This document shows, piece after piece, positions 5,145-33,587 of a DNA stretch of 64,000 nucleotides. Within the stretch, counting starts at the first letter, position 1, and every line of letters begins with the position of its first letter. The notes beneath the pieces are model-generated. The model saw nothing but the letters and a program-made list of their open reading frames with translations. It was not told where the DNA came from and searched no databases. Location of the stretch: positions 57,114 to 121,113 of the forward strand of contig CAZYTX010000003.1 of assembly GCA_964650485.1 (NCBI GenBank). The letters run 5' to 3'. This stretch comes from an uncultured bacterium. GTDB lineage: Bacteria > RBG-13-61-14 > DATKZS01. A program made the position numbers and the translations under genes.

Positions 5145-5804
5145 ATGGCAAGCTACATATACATGAAGGTCCTGGAGTCGCAGCCCGGACGCTACGACCG
5201 TGGGATCTCATGGCTGAGCTTTGGGAGGGCGGACAGGGTAAAGCAGAGGATAGCTGAAGAGATCGTGCGGCCCGGGATGAAGGTCCTGGAGATAGGGGCC
5301 GGCACCGGGTCGTTCGCTATCATGGCCGCGAAAAAGGGCGCAGAGGTAAAGGGGTTCGATCTCTCACCGGCCATGCTTTCCGTGGCCAGAGAAAAAGTGG
5401 ATAAAGCCGGTCTTAATGACAAGGTCGAGCTCGAGGAGATGGGCGTGGCCGGAATGGACGGGATCGAGGCCGCGGCCTTTGACCTGGTGGTGTCCACGCT
5501 GGTGTTCTCCGAGCTCTCCGCGCAGGAGCAGGACTACGCATTGATTCATGCCTTACGCAGCCTGCAGCCGGGCGGCAGGCTGGCGCTCGCGGACGAGTCA
5601 AAGCCGGAGAGCACTCTCAAGGCCGCCCTGCACCAGGCCGTCCGCATTCCCCTCATGATAATTACATTCGCCTTGACCCAGACCTCGACAAAAGCGGTGC
5701 AGGACCTGCCCGAGCGGGTGGCGAGAGCGGGCTTTGTTATCGAAGCGGTGGAGCGCAAAAACCTCGGCTCCTTCATTTACCTGGTGGCGAGAAAGGAGGA
5801 GTAA
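5145..5804 (+). CDS. Class I SAM-dependent methyltransferase (UbiE/COQ5-like fold)
   Basis: RYDRGISWLSFGRADRVKQRI..., VLEIGAGTGSFAIMAAKKGAEVKGFDLSPAML (motif I / post-I) and LVVSTLVFSEL. The stop TAA 5802-5804 abuts the next ORF in the same frame. Confidence 0.8.
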   Translation: MASYIYMKVLESQPGRYDRGISWLSFGRADRVKQRIAEEIVRPGMKVLEIGAGTGSFAIMAAKKGAEVKGFDLSPAMLSVAREKVDKAGLNDKVELEEMGVAGMDGIEAAAFDLVVSTLVFSELSAQEQDYALIHALRSLQPGGRLALADESKPESTLKAALHQAVRIPLMIITFALTQTSTKAVQDLPERVARAGFVIEAVERKNLGSFIYLVARKEE

Positions 5805-6863
5805 TTGGGCCTTGCCGGCTGGTTGGTGGCTTACACGGCCCGGTGGCTTCCGCACTCCGCGGACACGGGGCTGAAAGCCATTGGCAAGCCAACCGAGGAC
5901 TCGCCCGTTATTGTGACCTCGAACTTCTCACTCACCGTGAACAGGGTGACAAGGGCGCTCAAGGGCATGGACCTGTGGCTGCTGGTGGCCAACACCCAGG
6001 GGATAAACGTGTGGTGCGCTGCCTGCGGGGGCATGTTCACCGAGAACCACGTGATTGACGCCATCAAGGTGGCCGGGCTGAGCGAGCGGGTCTCTCACAA
6101 CCAGGTCATTCTCCCCGCACTGTCGGCGCCCGGCATTGATTGCAATGCAATAAAAGACGAGACCGGGTTCCGGGCAAGGTTCGGGCCGGTGCAGGCCGCG
6201 GACATCCCCGCATACCTGGCCCATAAAAAGAAGAAGACCAGTGAGATGAAGCGGTTCAAGTTCGATCTCAGCCACCGCCTGGACATGCTCTTTCCCATGA
6301 ACTTCCCCATATACCTCCCGTTCGCCGTTGTGCTCGCCGTCTTCTGGCCCGGGCTGCTCCTGGGCGCGACCCTGATCTTCTGGGGAGCGCTTTTGTTTTT
6401 ATACCTGTTCGTGCCCTGGATACCGGGAAAGACCGGCTGGACCCAGGCCATCGTGTCCGCCGGCCTGTTCGTGGCCATGTGGGCCGGGTTTGACCTTTAC
6501 TTCACAGGGGACCCGCTCCTGCACTACAAGTGGTTCATGGCAAGCTTCGCAATTTTCCTGGCCGCGGGGTTCGACCTTGCAGGAATAGCCACCGGCAGGA
6601 AGTCGGACGCCGAGCAGTTGGTGCAAAAGCTGGGCATCAAGAGCATGGGCAGCCTGTTCAAGGAAAAGGACCTGGGCGAGATCACCCTGGACCGCGAGAA
6701 GTGCGACGGTTGCAGGACGTGCTTTAACATCTGCCCGGTGGGGGTGTACAACGGCCTTGACCAGGAAAGGAAGATGACCTTCCAGGACCGGGGGGCATGC
6801 TTTGCCTGCTCGGCCTGCGTAAAGCAGTGCCCGCAAGAGGCCCTGAGCCTGGCTGGTATCTAG
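5805..6863 (+). CDS. Fused HgcA-like corrinoid protein / HgcB-like 2x[4Fe-4S] ferredoxin (HgcAB-like)
   Basis: N-terminal SPVIVTSNFSLTVNRVTRALKGMDLWLLVANTQGINVWCAACGGMF closely matches the HgcA cap-helix signature N(V/I)WCA(A/G)GK, with Cys71 in the position of the Co-ligating Cys. Downstream GFRARFGPVQAADIPAYL resembles HgcA. Four predicted TM helices follow (IYLPFAVVLAVFWPGLLLGATLIFWGALLFLYLFV; AIVSAGLFVAMWAGFDLYF; WFMASFAIFLAAGFDLAGIA). The C-terminus has two CxxCxxCxxxCP motifs (CDGCRTCFNICP, CFACSACVKQCP). TTG start with GGAGG 5 nt upstream, translationally coupled to the methyltransferase. Confidence 0.6.
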   Translation: MGLAGWLVAYTARWLPHSADTGLKAIGKPTEDSPVIVTSNFSLTVNRVTRALKGMDLWLLVANTQGINVWCAACGGMFTENHVIDAIKVAGLSERVSHNQVILPALSAPGIDCNAIKDETGFRARFGPVQAADIPAYLAHKKKKTSEMKRFKFDLSHRLDMLFPMNFPIYLPFAVVLAVFWPGLLLGATLIFWGALLFLYLFVPWIPGKTGWTQAIVSAGLFVAMWAGFDLYFTGDPLLHYKWFMASFAIFLAAGFDLAGIATGRKSDAEQLVQKLGIKSMGSLFKEKDLGEITLDREKCDGCRTCFNICPVGVYNGLDQERKMTFQDRGACFACSACVKQCPQEALSLAGI

Positions 6864-6912
6864 TGCCTGTTGCGAAACTCTCATTTTCAAAGAAAGACAC
6901 AGTTCATTCCTC

Positions 6913-7115
6913 TCATGCCAGGGCTTGAGCCTTTTCCTCCAGAGATTCAACGAGGTCTTGAATTGCGTCCACTTCTTTTCCCTCGAAATAGGCTTCTCCG
7001 CATTGAACGCAGACCCAGGCGGGAACCGCATCGAGCGTCAGGTGGCAGCCCTTGCGGTCAACGTGGAAAAGAGTGACGCCCCTTTCATCTCACCCTGGCA
7101 ATGAATGCATTTCAT
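6913..7115 (-). pseudogene. YgiT-type zinc-finger (MqsA-like) antitoxin gene interrupted by a -1 frameshift
   Basis: The reverse strand reads MKCIHCQGEMK, then, shifted by one base, RGVTLFHVDRKGCHLTLDAVPAWVCVQCGEAYFEGKEVDAIQDLVESLEEKAQALA*. Inserting one base in the AAA/GGGG run restores a 68-aa YgiT zinc finger with two CxxC pairs. It lies in a low-GC islet. Confidence 0.45.
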
Positions 7116-7153
7116 TTTCCACTTTAATATTTTGCCTTCTCTAGATTAGTCTT

Positions 7154-7426
7154 TCAGTAAGTTAGAAGAAGCCGGTCAGCAACGACCTCATTCTCAAGCG
7201 TCTTGCCTCCCATTTGGAACCTTTTAAGCATTGATCGTCCGCAGTTTACAAAGGCCTCTCTCTCAAATAAGCCGGATGGTATACTCAGCTCGCATAAGTG
7301 ATTGCCCGACTTCTTCTTTCCATCTATGCTCAAGGCAACGTAGGCCCCTCTCTTTTTGCAAGACTCTATTTCCTCGAATAATCCCTCTATATCGAATGTT
7401 TGGGCACCGTAAGGAAAGACCTGCAA
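7154..7426 (-). CDS. Hypothetical 90-aa protein, candidate toxin partner of the zinc-finger antitoxin
   Basis: ORF in low-GC DNA ending 38 bp upstream of the zinc-finger gene, which is the toxin-antitoxin order. I recognise no family, and it could be spurious. Confidence 0.25.
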   Translation of the reverse strand: MQVFPYGAQTFDIEGLFEEIESCKKRGAYVALSIDGKKKSGNHLCELSIPSGLFEREAFVNCGRSMLKRFQMGGKTLENEVVADRLLLTY

Positions 7427-7480
7427 GCATATTTGAGCTACAGAGCTTCAAGATTAAATGACTATGTGGAACCTCGACTA

Positions 7481-8059
7481 ATGGATGTCAAGGAAGCTAA
7501 AAGCCGGTTTATAGAACTTAAGAAGAAGTTGAGACCATCATGTCATTTGCCGATGAATAAGCAAAAAGGGAAAAAGAAGTCGCCGGCATACTTCACTGGC
7601 ATAATAAATATGCTGATTGAGAAGAATATAGGAGATCTTGATTGCGATTATGACCCGAGAAAGATGGTAGTTTTTTTGAAAGATGGCAAGCCTGCTCGAA
7701 CCATGGCAAGGAGAATAGACGGTGCTTTCCCATCCACTATTAATCCTGTCGCTATATGGGAAATAAAGGAATACTACTATACGACAACTTTCGGAAGCAG
7801 GGTGGCTGACGGCGTTTATGAAACCCTTCTTGATGGAATGGAGATCGAGGAAGCGGCAGAGAATGAGAGTCTTAAAGCCCTACATTACTTGATGATAGAC
7901 TCTCATTATACGTGGTGGGAATGCGGCAGATCTTACATTTGCAGGATCATTGATATGCTTCATATGGGATATGTTGATGAAGTGTTGTTCGGCAAAGAGG
8001 CTATTGAAAGACTTCCAGCTATTGTAAGAAAGTGGAGGAGATTAAAAGTCGGAAGATGA
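7481..8059 (+). CDS. Hypothetical protein with a possible PD-(D/E)xK nuclease-like motif
   Basis: Low-GC ORF with codon usage unlike its neighbours. RIDGAFPSTINPVAIWEIKEYYY fits a D...(D/E)xK catalytic signature. ATG at 7481; the track ORF begins at TTG 7400. Confidence 0.45.
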   Translation: MDVKEAKSRFIELKKKLRPSCHLPMNKQKGKKKSPAYFTGIINMLIEKNIGDLDCDYDPRKMVVFLKDGKPARTMARRIDGAFPSTINPVAIWEIKEYYYTTTFGSRVADGVYETLLDGMEIEEAAENESLKALHYLMIDSHYTWWECGRSYICRIIDMLHMGYVDEVLFGKEAIERLPAIVRKWRRLKVGR

Positions 8060-8165
8060 ATCTTACCCCTGTAGGCTATGGCCGACTGCGGAAAAGACTG
8101 GCTTGCAGGGCTTGAAGAGCGGCTCTGTGCGTGATAACATTTGTTGGAATTGCTAGGGTGACTAG

Positions 8166-9425
8166 TTGGACATTAGCGAACAGGTAAGCAAGATGGCGCG
8201 CGATGCCCGCACTGCCTCCCGCGTGCTCTCCCGTCTCGACTCCGGGGCCAAGGACCGGGCGCTCCTGGACACTGCCGAGGCCCTTGTATCCCAGGCCGAG
8301 CGCATCCGGGCGGAGAATGAAAAGGACCTTGCCGAGGCCCGGAAGGCGGAGCTGCCCGAGGCCATGGTGGACCGGCTGACCCTGACCCCCGAGCGCATCA
8401 AGTCCATGGCCGACGGCCTTGTCGCGGTCGCGGCCCTGCCAGACCCTGTGGGCGAGGTCACCAGCATGTGGACCCGGCCCAACGGCCTCAGAATCGGACG
8501 CATGAGGATCCCTCTCGGTGTGATAGGCATCATCTACGAGTCCAGGCCAAACGTGACCGTTGACGCCGCGGGGCTCTGCCTCAAGTCGGGCAACGCCGTG
8601 ATCCTGCGGGGCGGCTCCGAGTCCATAAACTCGAACCGGGTGCTGGGCGAGGTCATGGTCGAGTGCGCCAAAGAGGCCGCTGTGCCCGAGGCTGCCATAC
8701 AGGTGATGCCCATGACCGACCGTGCCGCGGTGGACGCGCTGCTTTCGCAGGAGGACTATGTTGACGTGATAATTCCCCGCGGTGGGGAGGAGCTTATCCG
8801 CAAGGTGGTGGAGAAGTCCCGCATACCCGTGCTCAAGCACTACAAGGGGGTGTGCCACGTGTACGTGGACGTTGACGCGAACCCCAGAAAGGCCCGGGAG
8901 ATAGTGCTGAACGCCAAGCTGCAGCGGCCCGGGGTGTGCAATGCCATGGAGACCCTGCTGGTGCACGCGGCCGTTGCCGAGGACTTTCTTGCAAGCATAG
9001 TCACCCCCCTGGTCAAGGCCGGGGTGGAGCTCAGGGGCTGCCCGGACACCCGCAGGTTCGTGCCCGGCATGAAGGCGGCCACGGAAGATGACTGGTACAC
9101 CGAGTACCTTGACAAGATACTGGCCATAAGGCTGGTGGAGAACATTGACCACGCAATCGAGCACATCCAGGAGTACGGGTCGGACCACACCGAGGCGATC
9201 GTCACCGAGAACTACACCAACGCCCAGCGGTTCATACGGGAGGTTGACTCCAGCTCGGTCATGGTGAACGCCTCCACCCGCTTCTCCGACGGGTTCCAGT
9301 ACGGCCTGGGAGCAGAGATCGGGATCAGCACCTCCAGGCTGCACGCCTACGGCCCCATGGGGCTTTGCGAGTTGACGACCAGCAAGTTCATAGTGTATGG
9401 TGAAGGTCAGGTTCGCGAGTCGTGA
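8166..9425 (+). CDS. proA: Gamma-glutamyl phosphate reductase
   Basis: 419 aa aldehyde-dehydrogenase-family Pro[35 protein letters not shown] and catalytic Cys in [12 protein letters not shown]. Confidence 0.9.
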
Positions 9426-32976: not shown

Positions 32977-33195
32977 TTGGCTATGAAATCGCTTGAAGAC
33001 AGGATAAAAGAGCTTCCGGCTGAGTTCTTGCCCGAGGTCGAGGATTTTATAGATTTCTTGTTAAAAAAAAATCGCAACAAAAAAAAGAAGAAGCCCGCAT
33101 TTGAATGGGTCGGAGCACTCGAGGACTTGAAGGAAGAATACACCTCCGTCGAGCTTCAGCATGAGATATCAAGATTTCGAGCCACGGAGAAATGA
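32977..33195 (+). CDS. vapB: VapB-type antitoxin (DUF2281-like)
   Basis: 72 aa ...IKELPAEFLPEVEDFIDFLLKK..; 4-nt overlap with the downstream PIN gene. AT-rich relative to the genome. Confidence 0.6.
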   Translation: MAMKSLEDRIKELPAEFLPEVEDFIDFLLKKNRNKKKKKPAFEWVGALEDLKEEYTSVELQHEISRFRATEK

Positions 33196-33587
33196 AGCTC
33201 CTTATAGACACCAATGTGGTGCTTGAAATGCTGCTCTGGCAGCAACAAGCCGATGAGTCTATCGAACTTTTTAACAGATTAGGTGAACACGATTTTTATA
33301 TCACTGATTTTTCTCTTCATTCTTTAGGGGTCATTCTATTTCAAAAAAATCGGCGAGAAGCCTTTGTGCAATTTCTGAAGGATATGATTGTAAACCCTGT
33401 TATCGAGATAAAGACGTTGCTCATGGAAGACATGGATGAACTCACCATGAACTCCAGAAGTTTCAACCTTGACTTTGATGATGCCTATCAATACACCACT
33501 GCAATAAAATTCGGCCTGACTATTGTCAGCTTCGACAACGACTTCGACCGGACGGAGCTGGGGAGAAAGGAACCGGGAGAGATTTAG
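33192..33587 (+). CDS. vapC: PIN-domain toxin VapC
   Basis: MKLLIDTNVVLEML...ITDFSLHSL...DDAYQYTTAI...VSFDNDFD (the conserved PIN acidic residues). Confidence 0.8.
   Translation: MKLLIDTNVVLEMLLWQQQADESIELFNRLGEHDFYITDFSLHSLGVILFQKNRREAFVQFLKDMIVNPVIEIKTLLMEDMDELTMNSRSFNLDFDDAYQYTTAIKFGLTIVSFDNDFDRTELGRKEPGEI

Follow-up and report, generated by a model that had tools for sequence, protein, structure and literature searches.

In an intact type II restriction-modification system of the kind governed by a controller (C) protein, the methyltransferase (M) protects the sites of the host, and expression of the endonuclease (R) is first delayed and later set by the C protein. The C protein has its binding site, a C-box, in front of the C gene (PMC2094064), and two further papers on such systems describe that it activates and subsequently represses transcription of C and R (PMC2175313, PMC2504287). 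The original source of the restriction enzyme BclI is [Bacillus] caldolyticus NEB414, which has one type II alpha N6-methyladenine (m6A) methyltransferase for TGATCA; the specificity T/GATCA is reported for BclI itself only (PMC5805893). Among toxin-antitoxin systems, DUF4258 is classed as a family of BECR-fold toxins of the RelE/ParE superfamily, whose activity is uncharacterised and which are sometimes fused to MqsA-type antitoxins (PMC11980606). Here we describe an islet of low G+C content (GC) that contains pieces related to both the BclI system and the DUF4258 systems. It is located at positions 6864-8100 of a stretch of 64,000 nucleotides (the window) from an uncultured bacterium, contig CAZYTX010000003.1 of assembly GCA_964650485.1, positions 57,114 to 121,113 of the forward strand. 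The islet is very likely the wreck of two adjacent addiction modules, both small and acquired horizontally, neither of which would still be able to work: a BclI-type restriction-modification cassette and a toxin-antitoxin operon of a DUF4258 toxin with a zinc-finger antitoxin. The relevant features of the window are as follows.

6864-8100: low-GC islet, flanked by an HgcAB-like fusion gene that stops at 6863 and by proA, which starts at 8166
6913-7115, minus strand: frameshifted pseudogene of a YgiT-type zinc-finger antitoxin with a CxxC...CxxC pattern, 67 amino acids once restored (TIGR03831)
7079-7085, minus strand: frameshift site, one base missing at AAAGGGG (A3G4 run), where relatives have AAG CGG GGC or AAG AGA GGA (Lys-Arg-Gly)
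7108-7156, minus strand: leftover 5' region of a toxin-antitoxin operon, composed of non-coding sequence and, after it, the first toxin codons GTG GAA AAT GAA (GTG at 7122-7120)
7154-7411, minus strand: C-terminal remnant of a D12-class (Dam-like, BclI-type) N6-adenine methyltransferase, 85 codons plus stop, FxGxG and DPPY lost
7412-7414: deletion junction at which methyltransferase DNA (minus strand) joins endonuclease DNA (plus strand), tblastn end points 7411 and 7415
7415-8059, plus strand: remnant of a BclI-family type II restriction endonuclease, comprising the last ~18 residues of DUF7690 and all of DUF7687

In the preliminary description of this locus, which was made from the sequence alone, the 90-amino-acid open reading frame (ORF) at 7154-7426 (minus strand, TTG start) was proposed as a candidate toxin. 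It proved to be the C-terminal third of a D12 methyltransferase: its only match in the PADLOC profile MTase_II is to the last 87 positions (206-292 of 292, E 4.6e-19), and it shares 69% identity with residues 212-296 of the 296-residue D12 methyltransferase of an intact locus, L001; Pfam and NCBIfam gave no match to this ORF. The L001 methyltransferase has the sequence DPPYSHSQ just upstream of the break, and the fragment in the window begins just past DPPY, leaving the part behind this motif and neither the S-adenosylmethionine-binding FxGxG motif nor the catalytic DPPY. The first five codons of the 90-amino-acid ORF, including its TTG start, are the antisense of endonuclease-derived DNA.

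On the opposite side of the junction, the called ORF at 7481-8059 (plus strand) encodes 192 amino acids (193 codons with the stop). The D...EIK motif that had been noted in this protein is present (RRIDGAF...WEIKEY), and with it the PD-(D/E)xK catalytic core of a BclI-type enzyme, but the protein is not the free-standing nuclease that had been assumed. Pfam DUF7687 is matched over the whole profile (1-187 of 187, E 3e-83), whereas the PADLOC profile REase_II is matched only at positions 79-277 of 285, and the remnant is 71% identical to residues 72-278 of the L001 endonuclease. Homology extends 5' of the ATG at 7481 to nucleotide 7415, where KDLQAYLSYRASRLNDYVEPRL aligns with KEILAYFEYRAEILNTVVEPQL of L001; the methionine at 7481 is therefore an internal conserved residue rather than the true start. 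Apart from its last ~18 residues, DUF7690 is gone, and what remains is a truncated form of a two-domain restriction enzyme of about 280-290 amino acids. A protein search with the endonuclease yielded 7530 homologs, and among the best 120 listed nearly all have 272-319 amino acids and both DUF7690 and DUF7687; a few are shorter calls with DUF7687 only, of which at least one is a mis-called full-length gene. The latter case concerns the intact locus L002 (5396-6579), where a gene call of 192 amino acids is wrong and the full-length endonuclease frame is open upstream from MEADARF...; several of the short DUF7687-only database entries may be mis-call artefacts of the same sort.

The intact loci L001 and L002 consist of a D12 methyltransferase gene on the minus strand, followed on the plus strand by an ORF for a helix-turn-helix (HTH) protein and by the endonuclease gene. 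In intact loci, the methyltransferase upstream of the endonuclease and on the opposite strand is a D12-class adenine methyltransferase of 285-296 amino acids, and the HTH protein between M and R on the R strand of L001 and L002 has ~79 amino acids and matches Pfam HTH_3; the HTH protein of the family resembles the crystallised C.BclI, C.AhdI, and C.Esp1396I. The stretch bounded by the stop codons of M and R measures 2082 bp in L001 and is reduced to 906 bp in the window. The ~1.15 kb that have been lost correspond to methyltransferase codons 1-211, the divergent spacer of ~300 bp with the C gene, and endonuclease codons 1-71. Only 3 nucleotides separate the two remnants, and neither a C gene nor a C-box is left in the window. 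A single deletion of ~1.15 kb across the control region would explain the head-to-head junction at 7412-7414.

The layout of the cassette was surveyed in a scan of one genome per species, which gave at least 599 pattern matches, of which at least 572 were confirmed; 80 loci were kept. The order M(-)/C(+)/R(+) was found in 75 of the 80, M(-)/R(+) without a detected C gene in three, and a cassette cut by the contig end in two. The genomes belong to Nitrospirota, Acidobacteriota, Planctomycetota, Verrucomicrobiota, Chloroflexota, Actinomycetota, Spirochaetota, Bacteroidota, and several proteobacterial classes. With so many protein matches and confirmed loci, the BclI-like endonuclease family is very widespread, and with about 60-70% identity between phyla it is unusually conserved for a restriction enzyme. 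Like the C-controlled type II systems PvuII, AhdI, Esp1396I, and Kpn2I, intact members have a controller gene of the HTH_3 type immediately upstream of R; the window has neither C gene nor C-box.

The link to BclI was provided by a tblastn search of a plasmid collection, in which a match with the same three genes in the same layout was found on pBcl1 of [Bacillus] caldolyticus NEB414. The HTH protein of pBcl1 is identical in 77 of 77 residues to PDB entry 2B5A (C.BclI). The 285-amino-acid ORF after bclIC contains DUF7690 and DUF7687 (WP_205536320.1; locus L176, 3001-3858, NZ_CP025075.1) and is labelled hypothetical in RefSeq; by its position after bclIC in the source strain of BclI, it is presumably R.BclI. 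Because the identity to the pBcl1 proteins is 51% for the endonuclease remnant of the window (E 5e-71) and 53% for its methyltransferase remnant, we assign both to the BclI family, although at about 50% identity the recognition sequence of this cassette need not be TGATCA. The common traits are a D12/type II alpha adenine methyltransferase, an endonuclease composed of DUF7690 and DUF7687, and the divergent M | C-R layout, which pBcl1 (M.BclI, C.BclI, R.BclI) shares with the intact relatives of the window copy; the latter differs in being a remnant that has lost M codons 1-211, the C gene with the control region, and R codons 1-71. Pfam DUF7690 and DUF7687 thus appear to represent the BclI endonuclease family, and a literature search for these two domains retrieved no paper. 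The PD-(D/E)xK endonucleases BstEII, NgoMIV, Cfr10I, Bse634I, SgrAI, PspGI, and BsoBI are only 9-13% identical to the window endonuclease, no PDB chain matched it at the sequence level, and the best Foldseek result was merely marginal (E 0.04).

As to the genomic context of intact cassettes, the one in L001, a chromosomal contig among the five full-length loci whose neighbours were read, lies amid housekeeping genes, and on pBcl1 a tyrosine recombinase is encoded about 300 bp downstream; in the phage collection, no homolog of the cassette was found. Avoidance of TGATCA in the window was considered as a footprint of past restriction and discarded as not distinctive, since its 11 sites against 21.5 expected rank only sixth among 64 palindromes. 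Other 6-bp palindromes below their Markov expectation in the window are CTCGAG (35 vs 65.5), CAGCTG (2 vs 11.7), GTCGAC (1 vs 8.6), and ATCGAT (1 vs 8.1).

Within the parts that were kept, the remnants differ from their intact relatives. Of 96 endonuclease columns with at least 90% conservation among 77 intact members, the remnant mismatches 8, and at 7 of these 8 positions the window has a residue that occurs in none of the 77 members, for which the maximum is 4; in the methyltransferase remnant, 4 of 44 conserved columns are mismatched. Both remnants show relaxed constraint, visible as an excess of unusual substitutions. There is no stop codon in either, and the D...EIK residues are intact, so that decay is not advanced.

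The second module is represented by the zinc-finger gene. Its ATG at 7115 (minus strand) opens the sequence MKCIHCQGEMKG..., which ends at a stop after 25 codons, and the -1 frame continues with ...RGVTLFHVDRKGCHLTLDAVPAWVCVQCGEAYFEGKEVDAIQDLVESLEEKAQALA up to the stop. Insertion of one base at the A3G4 run restores a protein of 67 amino acids, which has both CxxC pairs and scores 45.7 bits with TIGR03831 (YgiT_finger, cut-off 20.2). The restored protein is 76-91% identical to eight 70-amino-acid relatives that were read, from many phyla; the closest, P0241 (91%), has EMKRGVT at the spot of the lost base. In a nucleotide alignment with the locus L009 (82% identity), there is exactly one gap of 1 nucleotide, and it is located at the frameshift position. 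Programmed -1 frameshifting was discarded as an explanation, since G AUG AAA G does not form a slippery heptamer, while each of the eight relatives that were read is encoded in a single frame.

The preliminary description had foreseen the repair by one base, but its assignment to a canonical MqsA-like protein does not hold: the scores with TIGR03830 (29.9 vs a cut-off of 61.8) and with the Pfam family MqsA_antitoxin PF15731 (23.6 vs 30, profile positions 1-65 only) are below both thresholds. With Escherichia coli MqsA of the MqsRA system, the protein shares the N-terminal zinc-binding CxxC...CxxC domain, but it has no C-terminal HTH-XRE domain and, like its relatives, comprises 67-70 rather than 131 amino acids. 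The family of the protein is paired with a DUF4258 toxin instead of MqsR. All intact loci that were examined have a DUF4258 gene of 103-112 codons ahead of the zinc-finger gene, with a stop codon that overlaps the antitoxin ATG by 4 bp; the pairing was checked directly for P0241 (91%) and P0329 (78%). The upstream ORF proposed earlier as the toxin is thus not the partner, and the gene of the real partner is absent from the islet.

Of the DUF4258 gene, just the first four codons are left. A tblastn search with two DUF4258 toxins detected no remnant in 6800-8300, on both sides of the restriction-modification remnant (best E 0.19). The 49 nucleotides 7156-7108 on the minus strand align to L009 3633-3686, just upstream of and into the DUF4258 start (BLASTN E 1e-7), with a local score of 21.5, while shuffled queries scored 11 at most. 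In the window, the AAATGAA repeat at 7117-7111 joins the toxin start to the antitoxin ATG (7115-7113, minus strand), the sequence at 7122-7107 being GTGGAAAATGAAATGC. In L009, the toxin gene ends with GAGAAATGAAATGCATCC and thus has a copy of AAATGAA at either end, and the reading GTGGAAAATGAAATGCATTC of the window is the exact product of a deletion between the two copies. Compared with the DUF4258/YgiT zinc-finger module elsewhere, the window copy has kept a closely similar antitoxin and the 5' region of the operon, whereas its toxin gene is deleted and its antitoxin gene frameshifted. The earlier expectation that an intact zinc-finger frame would indicate a live toxin-antitoxin module also fails, because the toxin gene is gone in either case.

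Loss of the toxin next to a preserved zinc-finger gene recurs elsewhere. Among 80 metagenomic loci (L016-L095), truncated toxins beside intact zinc-finger genes are common, and the upstream DUF4258 gene is truncated or replaced, for example, in L021, L030, L031, L036, L046, L075, L077, and L081. Toxin-first decay, which leaves orphan antitoxins, therefore seems to be the usual fate of the module. In L010-L015, folD is followed by the DUF4258/zinc-finger pair and, a few hundred bp to 2 kb downstream, by another short piece that matches the FolD C-terminal domain, a pattern which suggests that an island was inserted at the folD 3' end, accompanied by a partial duplication.

The two modules appear to have arrived separately. 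The zinc-finger gene was found in 0 of 80 cassette loci and M or R in 0 of 82 toxin-antitoxin loci. A joint arrival was therefore rejected, and the modules are regarded as independent insertions that happen to be adjacent, with the homology upstream of the toxin-antitoxin genes beginning right at the methyltransferase stop codon (7156-7154). For the restriction-modification cassette, one deletion of ~1.15 kb across the divergent control region would have removed at once the catalytic two-thirds of M, both promoters together with the C gene, and the N-terminal DUF7690 of the endonuclease, after which the two leftover 3' pieces would abut head-to-head. In type II restriction-modification addiction, loss of M first is expected to cause post-segregational killing, which a joint loss of R, C, and M would avoid. 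In the toxin-antitoxin operon, the toxin ORF would have been excised by recombination or slippage between the AAATGAA repeat at the toxin start and its second copy at the overlap of toxin stop and antitoxin start, so that the first four toxin codons came to be fused to the antitoxin ATG. With no toxin left to neutralise, the antitoxin gene may then have lost one base and become a pseudogene. We infer that the remnants are neither expressed nor active. A scan of the islet for promoters and terminators gave a number of sites not above that of shuffled sequence.

The composition of the islet fits its content. The sharp drop in GC that the preliminary description had pointed out between the HgcAB-like gene and proA is confirmed: in 300-nucleotide windows, GC is 0.39-0.46 over about 6900-8100 and 0.58-0.64, or about 0.60, on both sides. 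Resolved by part, GC is 0.46 in the methyltransferase remnant, 0.41 in the endonuclease remnant, 0.54 in the zinc-finger gene, and 0.60-0.62 in the flanks. A cassette more than 5 GC points below its own flanks was found in 53 of 63 genomes with an intact copy, and we therefore count low GC as typical of the BclI-type cassette. The overall label given at first, a degraded mobile or defence islet, has been borne out by the restriction-modification and toxin-antitoxin remnants. The flanking direct repeats or integrase that were to be looked for were not found: a repeat search around the islet yielded only short repeats at chance level, the ORF list contains no integrase adjoining the islet, and there is no tRNA gene in the 64-kb window.

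Other explanations of the islet have to be weighed against these data. That the 90-amino-acid ORF is the toxin of a degraded MqsRA-like pair, next to an unrelated stand-alone PD-(D/E)xK protein, would agree with its place directly upstream of the zinc-finger gene (same strand, 38-bp gap) and with the blank result in Pfam and NCBIfam. This possibility can practically be dismissed, in view of the match to the last 87 positions of MTase_II, the identity of 69% to residues 212-296 of an intact D12 methyltransferase and of 53% to the methylase of the BclI plasmid, the start codon lying within antisense endonuclease DNA, and a zinc-finger family whose partner is DUF4258 with an overlap of 4 bp and not this ORF. 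An artefact of assembly, by which chimeric joins or collapses in a metagenome-assembled genome would have created the junction at 7412-7414 and removed the toxin gene, is suggested by a source that is apparently an uncultured-organism assembly with nearest relatives only 68% identical. It is hardly credible either, because a separately assembled Logan contig of run SRR7048220 (L003, 1940 bp) spans 6379-8318 of the window, with both junctions, at 100% identity, and no internal repeat is long enough for a collapse. This contig reaches from the interior of the HgcAB-like gene to proA and reproduces the zinc-finger frameshift as well as the methyltransferase/endonuclease junction; it may share reads with the window.

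Somewhat less improbable, though still unlikely, is a partly live islet, in which the DUF7687 core from the methionine at 7481 would be kept as a solitary nuclease (a Dam-like methylase of the host might, for example, protect its sites), while the zinc-finger frameshift would be a sequencing error in an orphan antitoxin or regulator gene. It is in keeping with this view that the frame of 192 codons is free of stops, with D...EIK and most invariant residues intact, that gene callers predict the 192-amino-acid product, that metagenomes often contain orphan zinc-finger genes beside truncated toxins, and that the missing base falls within an A3G4 run. However, endonuclease homology runs from the junction through 22 codons 5' of the methionine with no promoter, C-box, or C gene left, DUF7690, which is present in nearly all of the best 120 homologs listed, is missing, the seven residues at conserved columns that occur in none of the 77 intact members exceed the maximum of 4 among these, and the frameshift recurs in a separate short-read assembly. 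Taken by itself, survival of the DUF7687 core as a solitary nuclease without methyltransferase, tolerated through host methylation or repurposed, has a very low probability in our estimation; if it were true, the islet would exemplify a restriction-enzyme core that was domesticated once the addiction module to which it belonged had been disarmed.

Several points weigh against the reading of the islet as the wreck of two addiction modules. The open frames and the intact catalytic motif would allow some residual function of the 192-amino-acid ORF. Since L003 may derive from the window's own reads, the single-base deletion is supported at the level of the assemblies. The model of toxin excision depends on one sufficiently close locus, L009, the other loci being too diverged upstream, and the identity of the 285-amino-acid ORF of pBcl1 with R.BclI follows from its position and is stated in no annotation. 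There is also no close relative of the host available, and hence neither an empty site nor an intact ancestral copy for comparison: in the search with the HgcAB-like protein, the source contig was recovered at 100% and the next best homologs were 68-69% identical, and a scan of genome contigs with the same protein yielded no relative. The outer borders of the islet were therefore set by composition and homology.

The wreck of two addiction modules remains the reading that we prefer, and what the locus displays is ordinary gene decay of known kinds, not a working or a new system. For annotation, this means that the 90-amino-acid ORF, the 192-amino-acid ORF, and the zinc-finger gene should be treated as pseudogene fragments and not as a toxin, a hypothetical nuclease, and an MqsA antitoxin. 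The locus illustrates two routes by which such modules may be disarmed, namely one deletion in the control region that disables R, C, and M together, and a deletion at microhomology that removes the toxin and is followed by decay of the antitoxin. As a by-product, DUF7690 and DUF7687 are linked to the classical enzyme BclI.

The HgcAB-like fusion gene extends over 5805-6863 and carries the name that NCBI uses for close homologs ("HgcAB-like fusion protein"); neighbours farther out are pnp, a UbiE-like methyltransferase gene, nadD, and rsfS. The genes for the UbiE-like S-adenosylmethionine-dependent methyltransferase and the HgcAB-like fusion protein (5145-6863 of the window; L006-L008) form a conserved adjacent pair in distant relatives, with 67-69% identity. 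Three of the loci with HgcAB-like proteins of 68-69% identity have kept this pair, and proA is not downstream of it; the genes that follow the pair are different in every case (L006-L008). Elsewhere in the window, at 32977-33587 (plus strand), there is a second low-GC islet (about 0.41 vs 0.60) with an apparently intact toxin-antitoxin pair, in which a 72-amino-acid DUF2281 protein gene (E 6e-16) is followed, with an overlap of 4 bp, by the gene of a PIN-domain protein of 131 amino acids (E 3e-12).

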